64,000 nt of DNA, taken from contig CAKUUM010000001.1 of assembly GCA_934692905.1 (NCBI GenBank), forward strand, positions 27,997 through 91,996, read 5' to 3'. The translations under genes and the position numbers were made by a program. Below are positions 4,503 to 54,727 of the stretch, in pieces (within the stretch, counting starts at the first letter, position 1; each line of letters begins with the position of its first letter). The notes beneath the pieces are model-generated. The model worked only from the letters and a program-made list of their open reading frames with translations, was not told where the DNA came from and did not search any database. Source of the DNA: an uncultured Bacteroidales bacterium (GTDB taxonomy: Bacteria > Bacteroidota > Bacteroidia > Bacteroidales > Paludibacteraceae).

Positions 4503-5900
4503 TTATCCTTTTTTCAGCATATATACACATTCCGATGCACGTGTCACGGCTGTGTAGAGCCATCGGAGATAGTCGACGGTGTGTTGCTCGGGGGGGACGT
4601 TTCCTGTGTCGATAAATACCCGTTTCCACTGTCCGCCCTGCGCCTTGTGGCACGTGACGGCATACGCAAAACGGACTTGCAATGCGTTGTAGTAGGGTGA
4701 TTTGTAGATAGCCTCCGTCAGTTTCCGCCTGTTGCGTTGCAGTTCTGGATAATCCTCTGATATTCCGACATATAGCGTCTTTTGCAGTTCGTAGTTTGAT
4801 TCCGGCGAGTCTGTATGGAGAGTGTCCAACCACAAGATGACGTCTATCTCCCAATCGTAGTCCAATGCGCGGAGTGAGGCATCCGCGAAGTGAAATCCAT
4901 ACATCTCTCTCTCGTTGCGAAGACGAATGATTTCCATCATATCCCCATTGGCGAGAAAAGGAAGTCCTTCATACTGCTCTGTCCAGAAATAGTTGTTTTT
5001 GCTCACCATGAGCCGGTCGCCGGTTGATATTTCGTCCTCTTTCCAGAGGATGCGCCCGCGCACGCCCTGGTTATATAGATTGGTCCTGCGATTGGTGCGT
5101 GTCAGAATGATGGTCTCTTCTTCCCCCACTTCGCGGTAGGCGCGTTCCAGTTCCTCCAAGAAGTCCTGTCCTGCTAACTCTTGAAAGTCAGCACTATAGA
5201 GCCAATGCTCTTCGGTATCTATGCCCTCGGACAGTTGTTCCCTGAGGCGTGTGGCATTTGCCAAGATGCCGCTGTCGAGGGCTTGACGTGCCACCCCGGT
5301 CAGCGTGTATGTGGTGATGTCCAAGCCGTATCCTGCCATGTATTGCGGGTCCAAAGCAGGTGATAATGAGGAACCTACGGGTGGTAGTTGGGCGTCATCG
5401 CCCAAAAGAAGGAGGCGGCACCCCTCGCCCGCATAAACGTAACTCACCAAATCATCCAACAACATTCCTGTGCCGAAAGCCGATGTGTCGCGTTGCCCCG
5501 AAATCATGGATGCCTCATCTACAATAAATAAGGTGCGCTTGCGCAGATTGTTCGCCAATGTGAAGTCCTCCACACCCAACAGGCGTTGGCGGTAGATGCA
5601 CTTGTGTATGGTGTATGCGGGTTTGCCTGCGTAGCGGGATAAGACTTTGGCGGCTCGTCCCGTGGGTGCCAACAGTATGACGGGCTGCTTGAGTTCGTCC
5701 ATCGCCCGCACCAATGCCGCCATAATACTCGTTTTGCCTGTTCCCGCATATCCCCGGAGGATAAAAGCGGGGCGTTTTTCGCTCTGTGTGTCGTGGCAAA
5801 TAACGAATTGTGACAATAGCGCCAATAACCGCTTCTGCCCCTCGTTGGGAATGAACGGCAAAGCCTGCAGGATTCTATTTTCTATAAATTTCTCTATCAA
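4503..5900 (-). CDS. RecD/TraA-like SF1 ATP-dependent DNA helicase (AAA_30 + UvrD_C_2 type)
   Basis: Walker A GYAGTGKTS, DEASM (Walker B) and the C-terminal YAVTCHKAQGGQW motif typical of RecD-like helicases. Length 465 aa. Confidence 0.9.
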   Translation of the reverse strand: MIEKFIENRILQALPFIPNEGQKRLLALLSQFVICHDTQSEKRPAFILRGYAGTGKTSIMAALVRAMDELKQPVILLAPTGRAAKVLSRYAGKPAYTIHKCIYRQRLLGVEDFTLANNLRKRTLFIVDEASMISGQRDTSAFGTGMLLDDLVSYVYAGEGCRLLLLGDDAQLPPVGSSLSPALDPQYMAGYGLDITTYTLTGVARQALDSGILANATRLREQLSEGIDTEEHWLYSADFQELAGQDFLEELERAYREVGEEETIILTRTNRRTNLYNQGVRGRILWKEDEISTGDRLMVSKNNYFWTEQYEGLPFLANGDMMEIIRLRNEREMYGFHFADASLRALDYDWEIDVILWLDTLHTDSPESNYELQKTLYVGISEDYPELQRNRRKLTEAIYKSPYYNALQVRFAYAVTCHKAQGGQWKRVFIDTGNVPPEQHTVDYLRWLYTAVTRASECVYMLKKG

Positions 5901-5912
5901 AACTACGAATTA

Positions 5913-5944
5913 TTTGGTTGTTCCGTTTTTTTGTTGTATCTTTG
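5913..5944 (+). promoter_or_regulatory. Promoter of the SRP RNA gene
   Basis: TTTG (5913..5916), a 20-bp spacer, then TATCTTTG (5937..5944). This matches the Bacteroides sigma-A consensus TTTG-N19-21-TAnnTTTG. Confidence 0.55.
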
Positions 5945-5960
5945 CAGTCCATTTGTATAG

Positions 5961-6056
5961 GGTAAGTCCTACACGACCAGCTCCCTCCGAACTCCCCCAG
6001 GTCTTGACCGAAGCAAGGGTACGAGGTTGTAGCGGTGCGATGTAGATAGCTTACCC
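5961..6056 (+). ncRNA. ffs: Signal recognition particle RNA (small bacterial 4.5S type)
   Basis: No ORF. The sequence forms a long imperfect hairpin with closing helix GGTAAG...CTTACC. The apical region CCCCAGGUC-UUGACC-GAAGCAAGGG keeps the helix-8 motif CAGG-UC...GA-AGCA seen in E. coli 4.5S RNA. A T-run follows the closing helix, and the gene has its own promoter. Confidence 0.7.
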
Positions 6057-6320: not shown

Positions 6321-6383
6321 CTCCATTAATGACCATAAAACATTGAGGAACATGTAATTACCCGTGTAATTAACCATTAATTT
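6321..6383 (+). repeat. AT-rich dispersed element (the 'ccattaat / taattaaccattaat' family), 63-bp form
   Basis: ctccattaatgaccataaaacattgaggaacatgtaattacccgtgtaattaaccattaattt is near-identical in architecture to 42383..42445. Its 3' half also matches 48806..48839, 18366..18403 and, inverted, 49338..49513. Confidence 0.8.
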
Positions 6384-41429: not shown

Positions 41430-41568
41430 CCGATAGTCATTGCGCATTACGCATTGAAAATTGCGCATTATTTCTCATGTTTTTGTCGGGCTAATTGTAT
41501 GTGATTAGTATGTGGTTAGTATGTGATTAGTATGTGATTAGTATGCTATTCTGCCGACCTTGCCGCGA
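41430..41568 (+). repeat. Word-array element, TATGTGATTAG type (copy B), preceded by ATGCGCAAT-type words
   Basis: cattgcgcattacgcattgaaaattgcgcatta...tttttgtcgggctaattg [tatgtgattag tatgtggttag tatgtgattag tatgtgattag] tatgctatt ctgccgaccttgccg. Confidence 0.85.
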
Positions 41569-41830: not shown

Positions 41831-42337
41831 ATGAGTACGTTTATTGGCAATATCGAAGCGCGGTTGGATGAGAAAGGGCGCATATTCATCCCCGCAGGGT
41901 ACAGGAAGATACTGGGCGAGATGGAGTCGCGCCGTATCATCATGCGCCGAGATACAGACAATGAGTGTATCATCTTCTACCCCGAACAAGTGTGGAACGA
42001 GAAAGTGGGGCAACTGCGCCATGCCCTGAACGAGTGGGACCCTGACGACCAGATGATACTGATGCAGTTCATCGCCGAAGCAGAGATACTGGAACCCGAC
42101 AGCCAAGGCCGCGTACTGCTCCAGAAAAAGAACGTGGAGATGATAGGTGCCCAACAAGACGTGCTGTTCGTGGGCATGTTGGACCGCTTCGCATTGTGGA
42201 GTCCGAGTGTCTTCCGCGAAAAGCAAATGCCGCAGAAAGATTTGGCAGAGCGTATAAGACAGAGAATGAAGGGGGGTACACCCTACAACCAAGGCTTCAT
42301 TAAAGACCGCACAAAAGAAGTGGAGGGACTCCGTTAA
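41831..42337 (+). CDS. mraZ: Transcriptional regulator MraZ
   Basis: MSTFIGNIEARLDEKGRIFIPAGYRK and a second SpoVT/AbrB-like half (DSQGRVLLQKK). It is the first gene of the dcw cluster. Confidence 0.9.
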   Translation: MSTFIGNIEARLDEKGRIFIPAGYRKILGEMESRRIIMRRDTDNECIIFYPEQVWNEKVGQLRHALNEWDPDDQMILMQFIAEAEILEPDSQGRVLLQKKNVEMIGAQQDVLFVGMLDRFALWSPSVFREKQMPQKDLAERIRQRMKGGTPYNQGFIKDRTKEVEGLR

Positions 42338-42445
42338 TTGCCGTTAATTGACCGTTAATGCAGGCAAGAAGATTGGGAAGAACTCCATTAATGACCATTA
42401 AAAAGAGAAAGAACATATAATTGTCGTGTAATTAACCATTAATTT
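42331..42445 (+). repeat. AT-rich repeat block: 3 x ccgttaattg tandem (overlapping the mraZ stop) plus a 63-bp 'ccattaat / taattaaccattaat' element
   Basis: ccgttaattg ccgttaattg accgttaatg ... aactccattaatgaccattaaaaagagaaagaacatataattgtcgtgtaattaaccattaattt. Compare 6321..6383. Confidence 0.8.
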
Positions 42446-42466
42446 CTCAAAGCAAAGAACTTGAAT

Positions 42467-45856: not shown

Positions 45857-47389
45857 ATGAAACTAAGTGAGTTGCTGAAAGGTGTGGAGGTGCTGCAAAC
45901 CGTGGGCAGTACGGATGTGGAGATACAGAGTATCCAGTTCGATTCGCGACGCGTGGATGAGGGCGATGTGTTCGTAGCCCAACGCGGCACCAGCGTGGAC
46001 GGACATACGTTTATCGCACAATGTATCAACCAAGGGGCAGTAGCCATAGTCTTGGAAGACAAGAACTATATCCGACTCCCCCAACCCCCTCAGGGAGGGG
46101 GCTCAACAAAGCAGGCACCTGATGTTACCTATATATTAGTAAAGAACAGCGATGAAGCCCTTGGCAGAATGGCACACACATGGTACGGGGAGCCGAGCAA
46201 GCACCTGCGGTTGGTGGGTGTGACAGGCACCAACGGCAAGACCACCACCGCCACCCTGCTCTACCGTCTGACAAAAGCCATGGGACACAAGGCAGGACTG
46301 CTCTCGACGGTCGTCAATTACGTGGACGACGAAGCCGTAGAGGCTACGCACACCACGCCCGACGCGTTGGAACTCAACGGGTTGCTGCACCGCATGGTAG
46401 CGGCAGGGTGCGAGTACGCCTTCATGGAGGTCAGCAGCCACGCCATCGCGCAGGAGCGCATCGCGGGCTTGGAGTTCGCGGGGGCGTTGTTCACCAACCT
46501 CACACGCGACCACCTCGACTACCACAAGACCTTCGACAACTACCGCGACACGAAGAAGAGGCTATTTGACGGGCTTCGCAAAGAGGCATTTGCCGTTACG
46601 AACCTGGATGACAAGAACGGGCTGGTGATGACGCAAAACTGTCGGGGTCACGTCTTCACGTATTCGACACGCGGCATGGCGGACTTCCGCGGGAAGATAC
46701 TTGAGGAAGGGTTCGACGGTATGCTGCTCCGCATACAGAGTACACAAGGGGCAGTGGACACCGAGGTATTCGTGCCGCTGGTGGGGCGTTTCAATGTGAG
46801 CAACCTGCTGCTGATATACGGTGCGGCTGTGGAACTCGGTTTCGACCCCATGGAGGTGCTGCGCATATTGAGTGGGCTGCACCCCGTGAACGGACGCTTC
46901 GAGACCATACACGCCCCGCAGGGCTGGACGGCGATTATTGACTACGCCCACACGCCCGATGCGGTGGAGAATGTGCTCCGTACCATCAACGAGATAATAT
47001 CGTCCACGGCGGGCAAGCGCAAAGAGCCCGCACAGGTGATTACGGTGGTCGGCTGCGGCGGCAACAGGGATAAGGGCAAGCGTCCGATGATGGCACGAAT
47101 TGCTTACGACCGGAGTACGCAACTGATACTGACCTCCGACAACCCCCGCGACGAGGAGCCCGCAGCCATTCTGCAAGACATGGCGGCAGGTCTGACGGAG
47201 GACGAACTGCGGCACGTGCTGATTATCGAAGACCGTGCGTCCGCCATCAAGACCGCCTGCACCATTGCACGCGACGGCGATGTGATACTCGTTGCCGGCA
47301 AGGGGCATGAGGACTACCAGATAATCAAAGGGGTGAAGCACCATTTCGACGACCATGAGGTGGTGAGAGGGTGCTTGATTGTTAAGTAA
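45857..47389 (+). CDS. murE: UDP-N-acetylmuramoyl-L-alanyl-D-glutamate--2,6-diaminopimelate ligase
   Basis: GVTGTNGKTTTA P-loop and the DNPR motif (TSDNPRDEEP) typical of MurE. Confidence 0.95.
   Translation: MKLSELLKGVEVLQTVGSTDVEIQSIQFDSRRVDEGDVFVAQRGTSVDGHTFIAQCINQGAVAIVLEDKNYIRLPQPPQGGGSTKQAPDVTYILVKNSDEALGRMAHTWYGEPSKHLRLVGVTGTNGKTTTATLLYRLTKAMGHKAGLLSTVVNYVDDEAVEATHTTPDALELNGLLHRMVAAGCEYAFMEVSSHAIAQERIAGLEFAGALFTNLTRDHLDYHKTFDNYRDTKKRLFDGLRKEAFAVTNLDDKNGLVMTQNCRGHVFTYSTRGMADFRGKILEEGFDGMLLRIQSTQGAVDTEVFVPLVGRFNVSNLLLIYGAAVELGFDPMEVLRILSGLHPVNGRFETIHAPQGWTAIIDYAHTPDAVENVLRTINEIISSTAGKRKEPAQVITVVGCGGNRDKGKRPMMARIAYDRSTQLILTSDNPRDEEPAAILQDMAAGLTEDELRHVLIIEDRASAIKTACTIARDGDVILVAGKGHEDYQIIKGVKHHFDDHEVVRGCLIVK
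46074..46101 (+). repeat. Short-form GC-rich hairpin element inside murE coding sequence (in-frame)
   Basis: gactcccccaaccccctcagggagggggc. It encodes about residues 73-82 (RLPQPPQGGG). Confidence 0.75.
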
Positions 47390-47435
47390 TAAGTAATAGT
47401 TAATAATTGATAAAACAAAGCCATCTTTTTTCGTG

Positions 47436-47493
47436 TGTATGGGTTGCGTATCCCTTGCTCATCCCTTGCGTATCCCTTGCTGTTTGACACGAG
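47436..47493 (-). repeat. GCAAGGGATA word array (inverted copy) between murE and mraY
   Basis: Reverse complement: cctcgtgtcaaaca gcaagggatac gcaagggatga gcaagggatac gcaacccatac. Confidence 0.75.
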
Positions 47494-47534
47494 GATGGTA
47501 GCATTAGTAATAGTTAATAATTAAGAGGTAATAT

Positions 47535-48806
47535 ATGTTGTACGAATTATTCAACCATTTCAGCACCATTCCGGGAGCGCGACTGATGACGTATATTTCG
47601 TTCCGCGCCATCATAGCGGGCGTGTTGGCATTGTGTATCAGTATCTGGATGGGCAACTGGTTCATCAACCTGCTGCGCCGCAAGCACATCTCCGAGACGC
47701 AGCGCGACGAGAAGACCGACCCCTTCAACGTCAACAAGAAAGGCGTGCCCACCATGGGTGGAGTGGTGATAATCGCGGCGATGCTGGTTCCGTGCCTGCT
47801 TATGGGCAAGTTGACCAACGTCTATATGCTGCTTATGCTGCTGACTACCATACTGTTAGGAGCACTCGGCTTTGCGGACGACTACATCAAGACTTTCCGT
47901 CACAACAAGGACGGCTTGAACGGTTGGATCAAAATCGCAGGGCAAGTCACCCTTGGTCTTATCGTCGGGCTCACGCTCCGTTACTGCCCCGACGCGGTGA
48001 TGAACGAGGTCGTAACCTCCCGCATCGAGAACAACATCGAGGTGGTGGAGAAGTCCCCCGACGTCAAGTCCACCCGCACCACCATTCCCTTTGTGAAAGC
48101 GCACAACTGCAACTATGCCGACATGTTCTCGTGGCTCGGCGAGACCAACAAATACAAAGCCGGCTGGGTCTTCTTCGTGCTGCTGACGGTGCTTGTAGTG
48201 GCAGCCGTGAGCAACGGAGCCAACCTCAACGACGGTATGGACGGTATGTGTGCGGGCAACTCGGCGATTATCGGAGCGGCACTTATCGTACTGGCGTATA
48301 TCAGTGGCAATGTGGTGTTTGCGGACTATTTCGATGTGATGTACATCCCTGGCAGCGAGGAACTGGTAGTGTTCCTTGCGGCATTCGTAGGCGCGCTGAT
48401 AGGTTTCCTCTGGTGGAACGGTTTCCCTGCGCAAATCTTCATGGGCGACACGGGCAGCCTCACGATAGGCGGCATCATAGGTGTGTGTGCCGTGATTATC
48501 CACAAGGAGTTGCTTTTGCCTATCCTTTGCGGTGTGTTCCTGATGGAGAGCGTGAGTGTCATACTGCAGACGCAGGTGTATAAGTTCGCCAAACGGCGCG
48601 GCAAGCACATCCGTGTATGGAAGCGCACGCCGCTGCACGACCACTTCCGCACATCCATGGAGCAGGTCTTGCGCAACGACCCCACATGCTCCGTCTATTT
48701 CAAAGGGCACGGCAACCTGCAGCACGAGACCAAGATAGTACTCCGTTTCTGCATCGTCACCCTCCTATTGGCAGCCCTGACTATCCTCACACTCAAAATA
48801 CGATAA
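47535..48806 (+). CDS. mraY: Phospho-N-acetylmuramoyl-pentapeptide transferase
   Basis: Polytopic membrane protein with PTMGG, NGANLNDGMDG and the FMGDTGSL motif. Confidence 0.95.
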   Translation: MLYELFNHFSTIPGARLMTYISFRAIIAGVLALCISIWMGNWFINLLRRKHISETQRDEKTDPFNVNKKGVPTMGGVVIIAAMLVPCLLMGKLTNVYMLLMLLTTILLGALGFADDYIKTFRHNKDGLNGWIKIAGQVTLGLIVGLTLRYCPDAVMNEVVTSRIENNIEVVEKSPDVKSTRTTIPFVKAHNCNYADMFSWLGETNKYKAGWVFFVLLTVLVVAAVSNGANLNDGMDGMCAGNSAIIGAALIVLAYISGNVVFADYFDVMYIPGSEELVVFLAAFVGALIGFLWWNGFPAQIFMGDTGSLTIGGIIGVCAVIIHKELLLPILCGVFLMESVSVILQTQVYKFAKRRGKHIRVWKRTPLHDHFRTSMEQVLRNDPTCSVYFKGHGNLQHETKIVLRFCIVTLLLAALTILTLKIR

Positions 48807-48839
48807 ACATATAATTATCGTGTAATTAACCATTAATTT
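48806..48839 (+). repeat. 'taattaaccattaat' element, forward copy immediately 5' of the GxxExxY gene
   Basis: aacatataattatcgtgtaattaaccattaattt. It matches the reverse complement of the 44-bp units at 49338..49513 (about 30 of 33 positions for unit 3). Confidence 0.8.
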
Positions 48840-48840
48840 C

Positions 48841-49350
48841 ATGGATATGGAACAGGACGCGGGACGGCAGCACTACAAGCAGGTGATATATGATATCATC
48901 GGTGCGGCAATGGAGGTGCACAGGACATTGGGTTGGGGATTGCTGGAACCTGTATATCAAGAGGCATTGTACTTGGAACTGCAAAGCAAAGGTATTGATT
49001 GTCAGAGGGAACAAGAGATAGAAATAAGGTACAAGCAATACGTATTGGATAAGAAATACAGGGCGGACTTGATAGTGGGCGATGTAATAGTGGAGTTGAA
49101 GTCTGTGTGGCAGATACTGGGCGAACATCGTGCGCAGTTGTGTAATTATCTGCGGCTTACCAAGAAACCTTACGGAGTATTGATTAACTTCGGGGAGCGG
49201 AGTCTGGCAGGAGAGCGGTGGCAATACGACCCGCTGACAAATGAGTGCACGTTGATAAACAAGAACATGGAGCCGGTTATATCGGACGATTACCGGTTTG
49301 AGCGGTACGATATACAGACAAACAAGACTAAGGAAGAAATTAATGAATAA
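48841..49350 (+). CDS. GxxExxY family protein (PD-(D/E)XK nuclease-like fold), inserted in the dcw cluster
   Basis: GWGLLEPVYQEALYLEL contains the GxxExxY signature. RADLIVGDVIVELK fits a D...E.K nuclease-type motif. 169 aa. Confidence 0.8.
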   Translation: MDMEQDAGRQHYKQVIYDIIGAAMEVHRTLGWGLLEPVYQEALYLELQSKGIDCQREQEIEIRYKQYVLDKKYRADLIVGDVIVELKSVWQILGEHRAQLCNYLRLTKKPYGVLINFGERSLAGERWQYDPLTNECTLINKNMEPVISDDYRFERYDIQTNKTKEEINE

Positions 49351-49513
49351 TTATACGGATAATTATATGTTCTAATGATAAAATTAATGATTAATTATAT
49401 GGGCAATTACATGTTCCCATAATGGAATTAATGGTTAATTATACGGGTAATTATATGTTCTTATAATGAAATCAATGAACAATCACATGGGTAATTACAT
49501 GTTCCCATAACAA
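49338..49513 (-). repeat. 4 x 44-bp tandem repeat of the 'taattaaccattaat' element (inverted orientation) between the GxxExxY gene and murD
   Basis: Units start at 49338, 49382, 49426 and 49470, an exact 44-bp period. Example: aattaatggttaattatacgggtaattatatgttcttataatga. The first unit overlaps the last codons of the GxxExxY ORF. Confidence 0.85.
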
Positions 49514-49524
49514 TGTATATGTAT

Positions 49525-50895
49525 ATGAAGAGAATTGTTGTTTTAGGCGCAGGAGAGTCAGGGACTGGCGCGGCGATACTGGCGCAGACCAAGGGGTTTG
49601 ACGTGTTTGTAAGCGATATGGGGGAGATAAAACCCGCATACCGTGCATTGCTTGACCAACACGGTATCGCGTGGGAAGACGGGCATCACACCGCGGACAA
49701 GATTCTCAATGCCGACGAAGTCATCAAGTCACCCGGCATTCCGAACACTGCCCCGCTTATCCTGCAACTGACGGCACAACACACGCCTGTCATCTCCGAG
49801 ATAGAGTTCGCCGCACGCTACACGCAGGCAAAGATGATTTGCATCACGGGCAGCAACGGCAAGACCACAACAACATCGTTGCTGTTCGATATGCTGCGCC
49901 GCGCAGGCTTAGACGTAGGTCTGGCGGGCAACATAGGCAACTCGCTGGCGTTGCAGGTGGCGCAGCAGGACCACGCATACTATGTCATTGAGTTGTCCTC
50001 GTTCCAGTTGGACAATATGTATGACTTCAAGGCGGACATCGCTATCCTGCTGAATATCACACCCGACCACTTGGACCGCTACAACTATGAGTTCCAGAAC
50101 TACGTGGACGCCAAGTTCCGTATCACGCGCAACCAGACCGCACGCGACGCCTTTATCTATTGGAGCGAGGACCCCGTGATTGACCGTGAGATAGCCAGGA
50201 TACGTCCGCAGGCAACGCTCTATCCGTTTGGCAGCAACAGTCAGAACGTGGCATACACCGACGGCAGCCACCTTGTCCTGGCGGCACCCGATGCCGTGGA
50301 ACCGCTGCGAGTGCCCCTTGAGGAACTCAGCCTACGGGGCAGACACAACCAACTCAACTCCATGGCGGCAGGCTTGGCAGCACAGATTCTGCACATCCGG
50401 AACGAGGTCATACGCGAGAGCCTGAAGCAGTTCGCAGGCGTGGAACACCGTCTGCAATACGTGGCAACGGTACGCGGCATACGATACATCAACGATTCCA
50501 AAGCCACCAACGTCAATTCCTGTTGGTATGCGCTCGAGAGCATGACCACACCCACCGTGCTTATCCTCGGCGGCAAAGACAAAGGCAACGACTATACCGA
50601 GATAGACGAATTGGTGCAAGCCAAGTGCAAGACGCTCATTTTCATGGGTTTGCACAATGAGAAACTAATCGAACACTTCGGCGCGTTGGGCTATGTGCCT
50701 TCCACAGAGGCTACTGCCGGTACGGAGCGCATATACGTGGACACCGACAACCTGCACGATGCCGTACAAGCAGCCTACCAAACAGCGCACGAGGGCGATA
50801 CGGTACTCTTGTCACCCTGTTGCGCCAGTTTCGACCTGTTCAAGAGTTACGAAGACCGCGGCGAACAGTTCATGAACGCCGTCCGAGCCCTCTGA
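49525..50895 (+). CDS. murD: UDP-N-acetylmuramoylalanine--D-glutamate ligase
   Basis: MKRIVVLGAGESGTGAA (Rossmann-type) and ITGSNGKTTTT P-loop. Alternative upstream ATGs at 49513/49519 lie within the repeat. Confidence 0.9.
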   Translation: MKRIVVLGAGESGTGAAILAQTKGFDVFVSDMGEIKPAYRALLDQHGIAWEDGHHTADKILNADEVIKSPGIPNTAPLILQLTAQHTPVISEIEFAARYTQAKMICITGSNGKTTTTSLLFDMLRRAGLDVGLAGNIGNSLALQVAQQDHAYYVIELSSFQLDNMYDFKADIAILLNITPDHLDRYNYEFQNYVDAKFRITRNQTARDAFIYWSEDPVIDREIARIRPQATLYPFGSNSQNVAYTDGSHLVLAAPDAVEPLRVPLEELSLRGRHNQLNSMAAGLAAQILHIRNEVIRESLKQFAGVEHRLQYVATVRGIRYINDSKATNVNSCWYALESMTTPTVLILGGKDKGNDYTEIDELVQAKCKTLIFMGLHNEKLIEHFGALGYVPSTEATAGTERIYVDTDNLHDAVQAAYQTAHEGDTVLLSPCCASFDLFKSYEDRGEQFMNAVRAL

Positions 50896-50933
50896 GAAGT
50901 CTAACCTCTAACATCTAACTTCTACCCTCCGAC

Positions 50934-52190
50934 ATGGATAAGAAAGGACTCATAGGACTCTGCAAGAACCGGCTTCGGTACGCCGACAAGACATACTGGA
51001 TTCTGTTCGGTGCGCTGATGGTTGTGTCGATTATCGCATTGTTTTCCGCCAGCAGCAGCCTCGCGTTCAAACAAGACAGCGCACTCGAACCCGTGATGAA
51101 GCATATCCTCTTCCTTGCGCTTGGCGCAGGGGCGGCATTCGTAGTGCAACTGCTGCCGAGCAAATTGGTACGAGTTTTCGGCTACGTGGGCTTGGCATTG
51201 TCGTTTGTACTGCTGCTGCTCACCTTCACATCATTGGGCGTGGAGCACAACGGTGCAAAGCGGTGGTTACGGATTGCGGGTCTCGAGTTCCAGCCGTCCG
51301 AATTGGCGAAACTGACGCTTCTCATCGTGGTGAGCGACCTACTCAGTCATATCCGCACAAAGGACGACGAGAAGAAGTATTTCTTTATCACATTGGCGGT
51401 AACGGCATTGATTTGCCTGCCCATCTTCCCCACCAACCTATCCACTACGCTTCTCTTGGGCGGCGTGGTGTTTCTGCTTTTCTTCCTCGCGCGCATACAT
51501 GTCAAATACTGGGGCACAACGCTCCTGATAGCCATGGGAATGTTGGTCGCAGGCTACTTCTTTGTGGAGAAATTCTATATCGAACCCAACAAAGAAGCCA
51601 AAGGAGTGATGAAGCGTGTGACCACATGGGTCGGACGTGTGGATGACCTTATCGAAGAAATCAAAGCCCCTGACGATGAGTTCCGCTTGACGGACGACAA
51701 CTATCAGCGGTCGCTGTCGAAAGTGGCGGTAGCACGTGGCGGCAAGTCACCCGTGGGCGTGCTGCCGGGCAACAGCACCATGCGCGACCGCTTGCCTCTG
51801 GCGTACGCCGACTATATCTTCGCCATCATTGTCGAAGAGACAGGCATGTTTGGTGCCATCGGACTGATATTCATCTACTTGGCAATACTATTCCGTGCCT
51901 GTCTCACCAGCAGCCGCTACGCCGACTATGCCGCAATGCTGATGACCATGAGCCTTGCCCTTATGCTCACCTGCCAGGCCTTGGTGAGTATGATGGTGGT
52001 AGTCGGCATTGGTCCCGTGACAGGGCAACCGCTACCGCTCATCAGCCGAGGCGGAACCAGTGTACTGATAACGGGCGTCTATTTCGGCATCATTATGTGT
52101 GTCGCGCGCGAACAGAACGAACTTCACGCCCGCCAGCAAGCAACCGCCGAGGACAGCCTGCAGGAAGTCCCTAACATCCGCTTGGATTAG
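50934..52190 (+). CDS. ftsW: FtsW/RodA/SpoVE family peptidoglycan glycosyltransferase
   Basis: Polytopic membrane protein in the murD-ftsW-murG position, with SEGT-like motifs (QPSELAKL, PLISRGGTS). Confidence 0.9.
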   Translation: MDKKGLIGLCKNRLRYADKTYWILFGALMVVSIIALFSASSSLAFKQDSALEPVMKHILFLALGAGAAFVVQLLPSKLVRVFGYVGLALSFVLLLLTFTSLGVEHNGAKRWLRIAGLEFQPSELAKLTLLIVVSDLLSHIRTKDDEKKYFFITLAVTALICLPIFPTNLSTTLLLGGVVFLLFFLARIHVKYWGTTLLIAMGMLVAGYFFVEKFYIEPNKEAKGVMKRVTTWVGRVDDLIEEIKAPDDEFRLTDDNYQRSLSKVAVARGGKSPVGVLPGNSTMRDRLPLAYADYIFAIIVEETGMFGAIGLIFIYLAILFRACLTSSRYADYAAMLMTMSLALMLTCQALVSMMVVVGIGPVTGQPLPLISRGGTSVLITGVYFGIIMCVAREQNELHARQQATAEDSLQEVPNIRLD

Positions 52191-54597: not shown

Positions 54598-54727
54598 TCA
54601 CGGCAAGGTCGGCAGAATCACATACTAATCACATACTAACCACATACTAATCACATACTAATCACATACACTTAGCCCGACAAATACACGAGGGGCAATT
54701 CACAATGCGCAATGCGTAATGCGCAAA
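54598..54727 (-). repeat. Word-array element, TATGTGATTAG type (copy C, inverted), with ATGCGCAAT-type words
   Basis: Reverse complement: gcgcattacgcattgcgcattgtgaattgcccctcgtgtatttgtcgggctaagtg [tatgtgattag x2, tatgtggttag, tatgtgattag] tatgtgatt ctgccgaccttgccg. Confidence 0.85.

Follow-up and report, generated by a model that had tools for sequence, protein, structure and literature searches.

A GxxExxY-family gene framed by inverted word arrays in the mraY-murD junction of a Paludibacteraceae bacterium, and the dispersed repeat family that accompanies it

How does a 169-aa open reading frame (ORF) of the GxxExxY family, bracketed by inverted copies of a short repeat, come to lie between mraY and murD in an essential operon of the division and cell wall (dcw) genes, and what connects this gene with the repeats around it? 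The question is raised by a window of 64,000 nucleotides (C1:27997-91996) from an uncultured gut Bacteroidales bacterium of the Paludibacteraceae, the 2.06-Mb assembly of which (103 contigs, 51% G+C) is the genome under study and is referred to below as G000. Coordinates are window positions unless they are prefixed by a contig (C1, C12, C36). An earlier note, made from the letters of the window, had described a GxxExxY ORF with one copy of a repeat on its left (48806..48839) and four inverted 44-bp copies on its right, an arrangement that looked like a small cassette landed in the operon without disrupting it.

This description is largely borne out (Table 1). The ORF matches both TIGR04256 and PF13366, its two neighbours are identified by their own profiles and are both intact (TIGR00445 for mraY and TIGR01087 for murD), the left copy reaches slightly further than had been described, to 48842, and the four right copies were recovered by Tandem Repeats Finder (TRF), by a repeat search and by nhmmer. 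The length of 44 bp holds for the tandem period (TRF: 3.8 copies, 49336-49504, score 205; unit boundaries 49336-49379, 49380-49423, 49424-49467 and 49468-49511), but the conserved part of the element is only approximately 35 nt long (AAATTAATGGTTAATTAYRYGGTAATTATATGTTC), the unit containing three AATTAnnnGnT subunits of 11 nt each and a linker of 9 nt. Three 85-nt registers within the right array show 81-86% identity. The left and right arms are complementary at 92% over 24 nt (48819-48842 / 49422-49445) and at 14/14 positions further out (48806-48819 / 49358-49371), and can be matched by eye at 34/38 positions if one 1-nt indel is allowed.

The fit between the arms and the genes is close. Immediately after the TAA stop codon of mraY comes the left arm with its outer end, while its inner end overlaps the GxxExxY start codon, ATG, and the first right unit contains the last four codons and the stop codon of this ORF. 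On the far side, the murD start that aligns with those of the relatives is at 49525, while the first ATG is at 49513. The A+T content of the arms is 76-80%. The locus with four right units was independently assembled in six displayed contigs from other samples and is therefore no assembly artefact. The cassette is a discrete entity of approximately 0.7 kb, consisting of a nuclease gene framed by inverted arms of 11-bp-phased AATTA-type words.

The mraY gene was located in 41 genomes of the genus, and the mraY-murD junction was read in 20 of these. The comparison of empty with occupied sites, which the earlier note had proposed, found both states and supports the interpretation given there. In 15 of the 20 genomes the spacer is 0-9 nt long, typically 'CT', and G006 alone holds the orthologous gene (88% amino acid identity) at the junction, together with the same left arm and three right units. 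G006 represents a sister species (RpoC 99% identical), and a search for relatives in genome contigs returned it as the only close relative (CAKVBV01, a metagenome-assembled genome from the Hadza gut). As 15 of the 20 junctions are this tight and the orthologue with the same arms is restricted to G006, the cassette is an insertion, and the junctions show its entry into an originally 2-nt mraY-murD junction on the stem of the lineage of G000 and G006. The number of right units is four in G000, three in G006 and one in same-species strains with a 98% identical protein; the minimal form therefore has one arm per side, and the array is dynamic, with gains and losses of units. Over 36 nt, the left arms of G000 and G006 do not differ at all, despite a 37% difference at the synonymous sites of the gene, which points to constraint on, or homogenisation of, the arm.

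Longer spacers without a gene also occur at this junction. That of G002 (L012, G002:C14) is 223 nt long and contains two GC-rich C-box/G-box hairpin elements as well as AATTAGAC-type words. Three further genomes have spacers of 36-52 nt with word-like sequence (L021 in G012, L025 in G055 and L028 in G023), including words such as TTTAACGATTAATTG and AAATGG/AAATGA repeats, and the spacer of G055 ends in ...ACGCAAATTTATGTTA, which is similar to an arm end. Each of these three short spacers is possibly a solo arm or a footprint at mraY-murD. A 'TAG CCCCCTC' stub after mraY is common to G002 and G006, and is missing from G000 as a 22-nt indel.

The arm unit also occurs far from the cassette. A profile of the five local units recovered 68 copies at 46 loci on approximately 30 contigs of G000 (nhmmer, E <= 0.01), 67 of the 68 being intergenic on a rough ORF map. 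At approximately 45 loci other than that of the cassette, the unit stands beside ordinary genes such as surE-, sufS- and crcB-like ORFs. Several copies are found at 11 of the 46 loci, and in ten of these all copies lie in one orientation; the GxxExxY locus is the only one of the 11 with inverted copies. The unit itself forms no significant hairpin (z of -1.3 to -2.4 when folded as single-stranded DNA, ssDNA) and has just a weak 7-bp palindrome. Solo copies show no preference for divergent or convergent spacers. An orientation bias of the solo copies relative to the neighbouring genes was also considered, and was rejected because the 33 vs 13 observed per copy become 20 vs 13 per locus (p 0.30). 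The genes between direct solo copies were likewise rejected as further cassettes, as they are ordinary housekeeping-like ORFs.

One solo unit, in the mraZ-rsmH junction, is present in both G000 and G006 and is missing from the short orthologous spacer of G002 in a three-genome alignment, indicating that tight junctions of operons have received insertions of the unit in the lineage of G000 and G006. The TTAACGG family (CATTAACGGTCAATTAACGGCAATTAACGGAG), which in G000 often adjoins the 35-mer, as it does in this junction, also forms the arms of a GxxExxY gene of G055 (G055:C38). Another word, GTATGTGATTA, forms near-perfect 11-bp tandem arrays at 23457-23510, 41497-41545 and 54616-54669, one of them inverted, and its two-unit pattern has 377 matches on 49 contigs of G000, with none for the reversed control.

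Table 1. Positions of the cassette, its neighbouring genes and the solo repeat units and word array in the window
Feature	Position	Strand	Evidence and remarks
mraY	47535..48806	+	intact, 423 aa; TIGR00445, 255 bits
Left arm, one 35-nt unit, orientation opposite to that of the right array	48806..48842	-	inverted-repeat search; nhmmer C1:76798-76836 minus, E 1e-6
GxxExxY / PDDEXK_3 nuclease gene, 169 aa	48841..49350	+	TIGR04256, PF13366
Right arm, four tandem 44-bp units, direct orientation	49336..49511	+	TRF; nhmmer four matches, E 1e-8 to 3e-10
murD	49525..50895	+	intact; TIGR01087, 394 bits; start by junction alignment with relatives
Solo 35-nt unit, mraZ-rsmH junction	42410..42446	-	nhmmer C1:70406-70442
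TTAACGG-word array beside the mraZ-rsmH unit, G000 only	42329-42349		pattern match C1:70325-70345
Solo 35-nt unit, intergenic	6345..6383	-	nhmmer C1:34341-34379, E 3e-10
Solo 35-nt unit, intergenic, more diverged	18365..18401	-	nhmmer C1:46361-46397, E 6e-6

Across the 41 genomes of the genus, the repeats and the gene are distributed together. Pattern searches were made with the core of the 35-mer and with the arm type of G055 (AATTAACGGNAATTAACGGAG), and the reversed-pattern control gave 0 matches in every genome in both. The two patterns matched 40 and 12 times, respectively, in G000, 44 and 13 times in G006, 31 and 10 times in G050, and 6 and 33 times in G055. These are the four genomes of the 41 in which a GxxExxY gene of at least 58% identity is encoded (100%, 88%, 66% and 58% in the same order). 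Two genomes without such a gene have a few matches (2 and 3 in G002, 0 and 1 in G019), while the other 35 have neither the gene nor a match to either pattern. The dominant dispersed variant in each carrier is the one that frames its resident gene (Fisher p 3e-12, for copies that are not independent of one another). In an RpoC tree, G000 and G006 group with G002, next to a clade of ten genomes with empty junctions, while G050 and G055 form a separate, well-supported clade; the aberrant branch of G023, probably caused by a frame problem in extraction, is disregarded. The presence of carriers in two separate, well-supported clades implies at least two changes of state. The occurrence of this lineage-restricted repeat family and its dominant variant are thus correlated with whether a GxxExxY gene is resident and with the type of its arms.

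The inverted layout can be followed among the homologues of the gene. The earlier note had held GxxExxY genes to be usually multi-copy, and had proposed that each paralogue be inspected for the same inverted element. The former fails in G000, where tblastn against the whole 2.06-Mb assembly found one gene only; there are thus no paralogues to inspect, but homologues at other loci and in other hosts are framed by inverted arms built from words of this type. Counting a gene as bracketed when the 150 nt upstream and the 200 nt downstream of it share an inverted, ungapped match of 16 nt or more, 11 of 20 GxxExxY loci qualify, vs 5 of 1601 G000 genes. The five comprise the GxxExxY gene itself, two TIGR02436 four-helix-bundle genes, a spurious ORF and an NtrC-like gene among TAGAG words. 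Inverted arms of ATTAATG/ATTAACG words accompany the homologues with 56-67% identity, both at unrelated loci (L042 in a polysaccharide cluster, L046 and G055:C38) and in two further lineages, G050 and P0076/L043; the arrays at P0032 (inside a polysaccharide cluster), P0004 (beside unrelated genes) and G055:C38 are inverted and of ATTAATG or ATTAACG words. The ATG adjoins the inner end of the left arm in homologues at these other loci, and does so too in G050 and in P0076/L043.

The last two also carry the cassette between mraY and murD. In G050 (L038, G050:C59), the homologue is framed by two inverted left copies and at least three right copies of a co-varying unit, AATTAATGAATAATTACACGATAATTATATGTT, and the start codon of murD (MLKRLVV...) lies inside the last repeat unit (…TAATTATATGTTAAAGCG), so that the element supplies the start of an essential gene. 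P0076/L043 represents a third lineage with a cassette at this junction, the MraY of its host being 82.5% identical to that of G000. A common origin of the three mraY-murD cassettes is unsupported, as their proteins share 60-66% mutual identity and are no closer to one another than to those of cassettes at other loci. The possibility that G050 and G000 have recently recombined over a tract at this junction was also considered and was rejected, given that the flanking genes show a synonymous divergence (dS) of 1.0-1.4 and that the synonymous sites of the cassette gene are saturated, both of which are hard to reconcile with one recent transfer of the junction. Together, these loci show the inverted-arm layout to be a trait of the GxxExxY family. 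At L033 (G045:C78), L007 (G022:C17), L005 (G012:C33) and L004, GxxExxY paralogues of 43-50% identity have long direct repeats (47-97 nt) on their flanks in place of inverted ones, and some of these repeats include a hairpin (ttgctcat...atgagcaa).

The two four-helix-bundle genes belong to TIGR02436, the ORF family of the 23S rRNA intervening sequences (IVS), and lie at C36:11886-12272 and C12:5429-5797, both on the minus strand. Their arms are inverted arrays of ATTTACGAT words and AAGGAATAAGG words, and these are dispersed in G000 as well, with 44 matches on 27 contigs and 11 matches on 7 contigs; the 44 matches were obtained with the pattern TTTACGATGTACGATTTA, for which the reversed control gave 0. 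The four-helix-bundle cassette on C12 (~5200-6000) occupies a junction in which G006 (G006:C53, L040) has a GxxExxY cassette, the flanks being 87-88% identical between the two genomes and comprising genes that end in ...NVLETLK.FNA.LL and begin with MKPNF.... The GxxExxY protein of this G006 junction is 55% identical to the query and its arms are unrelated to those of the G000 counterpart, while GxxExxY genes are also found in the same junction in G050:C92 and G055:C50. It follows that each cassette brings its own arms and that junctions turn over between sister species, and this particular junction looks like a hot spot for cassettes.

The encoded 169-aa protein matches TIGR04256 (GxxExxY; E 4e-39, 133.6 bits vs a cut-off of 35) and PF13366 (PDDEXK_3; E 1e-37, 129.5 bits vs a cut-off of 22), with a weak match to the Cas4 profile TIGR00372. 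No transposase domain was detected in profile scans of the protein, which returned only the PDDEXK_3 / GxxExxY family matches. PF13366/TIGR04256 is a very large family to which no function is assigned and which receives only passing mentions in the literature searched, the function of PDDEXK_3 being given as 'Unknown', with multiple transfers, in one paper (PMC3424549). The motif set of the protein is of the RecB/Cas4 type (E36, D76, E85-x-K87 and Q99-x3-Y103). The GxxExxY motif (G33-L-L-E36-P-V-Y39), D76 and E85-L-K87 are invariant in 35 homologues, as are Q99-x3-Y103 and a C-terminal block, G124-E-R-W ... N134-x-C136. A sequence search of the PDB with the protein gave nothing at E <= 1. An AlphaFold2 model (pLDDT 85.8, pTM 0.79) was compared with known structures using Foldseek, where the best match was Cas4 SSO0001 (PDB 4ic1, E 1e-4), followed by lambda exonuclease (~E 2e-2, probability 0.99), LHK-Exo and RecE, with TM-scores of 0.41-0.46. 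By its motifs and predicted fold, the protein is a member of the RecB/Cas4/lambda-exonuclease branch of the PD-(D/E)XK enzymes. The substrates that enzymes of this branch process are single strands or the ends of DNA. With Cas4 (SSO0001, 4ic1) and lambda exonuclease (1avq, 3sm4) the protein shares its nuclease core fold and the motifs E / D / ExK / QxxxY, while the G000 protein differs from these in being without Fe-S cysteines, a CRISPR context or evidence of a toroidal oligomer, and in having a distinct beta extension at its C-terminus, which is conserved. A comparison of the gene in G000 with that in G006 gives a nonsynonymous divergence (dN) of 0.052 and a dS of 0.51; the resulting dN/dS of 0.10 indicates that it is maintained by purifying selection.

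No Bacteroidetes-type TAnnTTTG motif occurs on the sense strand, and sigma-70-like and terminator-like matches are no more frequent than in shuffled sequences, for which reasons a promoter or terminator role was rejected. With no promoter or terminator of its own recognisable, the GxxExxY gene is probably expressed from the dcw transcript, within which the arms would form AT-rich leaders for the nuclease ORF and for murD.

To account for these observations, we lean, without great confidence, towards a discrete GxxExxY cassette whose Cas4/lambda-exonuclease-like nuclease recognises its own arms. In the mechanism proposed, the nuclease would bind the phased words, perhaps via its conserved C-terminal extension, and would cut at or near the outer end of an arm. 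Repair of the break, or processing of its ends, would then place copies of arms, and now and again of the complete cassette, in tight junctions between genes. The solo copies, which have no gene, would be acted on in trans, like those of the REP/RAYT or Ssn/NTS systems. In the first of these systems, formed by repetitive extragenic palindromic (REP) sequences and REP-associated tyrosine transposases (RAYT; Bertels and Rainey 2011, PMC3116915; PMC3337134), a single-copy gene similarly lies between inverted copies of an extragenic repeat, the repeat family is lineage-restricted, and gene and repeat co-occur. The RAYT proteins are, however, Y1 HUH transposases (IS200/IS605-like) of strictly vertical descent, and the palindromic REPs spread in the form of inverted doublets (REPINs), whereas the gene in G000 is of the PDDEXK_3 / GxxExxY type, has been gained repeatedly by horizontal transfer or independently, and has solo copies that are single or direct. 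Insertion sequences (IS) and miniature inverted-repeat transposable elements (MITE) likewise combine inverted ends around one gene with dispersed gene-less derivatives. Unlike these, the cassette is without a known transposase family or a visible target-site duplication, its 'autonomous' unit is single-copy and its gene-less copies are single arms, not paired ends. Integron cassettes have attC-like palindromes where the arms in G000 have phased direct words. The cassette thus differs from the described systems in its enzyme fold, its non-hairpin phased-word arms, its solo copies and its operon-junction home, and the findings suggest an undescribed nuclease-plus-repeat partnership like those of other enzyme families.

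Several observations weigh against a nuclease that recognises and spreads its own arms. The solo copies are single arms or direct arrays and never inverted doublets, which fits no known transposition scheme. Target-site duplications, for which the earlier note had suggested a search, are not visible when the filled junctions (G000, G006 and G050) are compared with the empty ones. A within-species empty-site pattern had 0 matches in metagenome contigs, but this carries no weight, as the filled-site control likewise had 0, the species being absent from them. The repeat loci common to the syntenic blocks of G000 and G006 are all conserved, and movement must therefore be slow, if it occurs. The four carriers amount to approximately two independent lineages, so that the co-distribution rests on few events, and 12 copies of the TTAACGG family are present in G000 without a matching resident gene. 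Dispersed arms also accompany the four-helix-bundle genes, which do not encode nucleases, so that a cis-encoded nuclease is not needed for the pattern.

Alternatively, the nuclease may have been domesticated for a host function of the Ssn kind. It would then read the dispersed units, probably as ssDNA, and modulate the recombination or uptake of incoming DNA around marked loci, with its own arms reflecting ancestry or autoregulation rather than mobility at present. The gene has one copy and is subject to strong purifying selection, the repeat loci are stable between G000 and G006, and the Cas4/lambda-exonuclease-like structural neighbours of the protein act on DNA ends or ssDNA, all of which agree with such a role. 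Ssn is a GIY-YIG nuclease flanked by hairpin repeats (NTS/SRM) that it cuts, the repeats being dispersed and co-occurring with the gene (Chenal et al. 2025, PMC11893778), and the layout in G000 matches that of NTS-ssnA-NTS, whose nuclease cuts ssDNA at the repeat and affects transformation (PMC11893778). Both systems have a small single-domain nuclease gene with a short repeat on either side, intergenic dispersal of this repeat, and co-occurrence of gene and repeat. They differ in that the fold of Ssn is GIY-YIG while that of the G000 protein is PD-(D/E)XK of the Cas4/lambda-exonuclease type, in that SRMs are hairpins of 20-50 nt while the arms in G000 consist of three phased 11-nt direct words, and in that there are hundreds of repeats for Ssn and approximately 70 in G000. 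The lack of a significant hairpin in the unit, with its weak 7-bp palindrome, speaks against this role, as it sets the unit apart from NTS or REP. So does the recent gain of cassettes at two or three independent mraY-murD junctions, together with the cassette swap between sister species; such repeated gain and swapping are more like the behaviour of a selfish guest than of a fixed host function, and we regard a purely domesticated role as unlikely.

An RNA element comparable to an IVS is a somewhat less likely explanation again. The arms would in this case pair in the dcw transcript, as a stem of approximately 33 bp that closes a loop formed by the ORF, and thereby make the insertion tolerable, with the nuclease as cargo. 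In the minimum free energy fold of the one-unit allele, the two arms do pair with each other, and the ORF is entirely enclosed between them. On the sense strand, however, the mismatches between the arms are not biased towards G-U-compatible changes, and for units 2 and 4 the pairing is better in the antisense strand. An Rfam scan of 47000-51000 gave no match. The solo and direct copies (46 loci in all), which are unable to form such stems, would be left unexplained, as would the co-distribution of gene and repeat. Like the 23S rRNA IVS, the cassette is a selfish element of approximately 0.4-0.7 kb in a transcribed unit, with terminal inverted repeats capable of forming a long stem around a small ORF and a variable number of short tandem repeats beside the ATG. 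An IVS lies in an rRNA helix and has a four-helix-bundle ORF, however, while the cassette in G000 lies in the junction of an mRNA operon and has a nuclease ORF. To our knowledge, the arms of IVSs do not form dispersed families. The same anatomy is found in the IVS of Coxiella, a selfish element of 428 nt that is excised by RNase III and has a 28-bp stem of terminal inverted repeats, a four-helix-bundle ORF and, ahead of the ATG, tandem heptamers that vary in number (PMC4990558). Its ORF family, TIGR02436, is the one that forms inverted-arm cassettes in G000, one of which sits in the junction that holds the GxxExxY cassette of G006. Neither the IVS-like nor the Ssn-like explanation is strictly exclusive of a cassette whose nuclease reads its arms.

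Least likely of all is a fortuitous association, in which illegitimate recombination or ordinary horizontal transfer brought the gene in, and the two spacers thereby created were later colonised by a lineage-specific intergenic repeat, spread by some process of the host and with no functional link to the gene; the many units beside ordinary genes, the other word families of G000 (the GTATGTGATTA arrays among them, and the TTAACGG family with no cognate gene) and the filling of the G002 junction with unrelated repeats would all be expected, but inverted flanks at just 5 of 1601 G000 genes, the same word type, inverted layout and ATG at the arm in diverged homologues from other hosts and loci, and the joint occurrence of gene subfamily and repeats, with matching variants, in 4 of 41 genomes from two clades would not.

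The proposal of a nuclease that reads its own arms can be extended to the family as a whole, which is possible but doubtful. GxxExxY proteins would then be sequence-reading nucleases, each with its own 11-bp-phased word array, and would form a hitherto undescribed class of minimal guest cassettes that home into the tight junctions of conserved operons (in this genus, into mraY-murD at least twice or three times) and seed arms without a gene throughout the genome, having their junctions, and perhaps their route of mobility, in common with the four-helix-bundle IVS ORF elements.

The locus gives the PF13366/TIGR04256 family, to date without a known function, a concrete and testable partner in the form of a defined 35-nt DNA unit, and the genus constitutes a natural experiment, with carriers and non-carriers, two arm variants tracking two gene variants, a reused junction and a cassette swap. 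Should the nuclease not read the arms, the cassette would still be a clean case of a guest gene tolerated in the essential dcw operon. If it does, its fold would be the third, after those of the Y1 transposases and of the GIY-YIG Ssn, to be paired with a dispersed repeat family, and the partnership would account for many of the 'word arrays' in the intergenic spacers of gut Bacteroidales and may provide a source of small sequence-specific nucleases.

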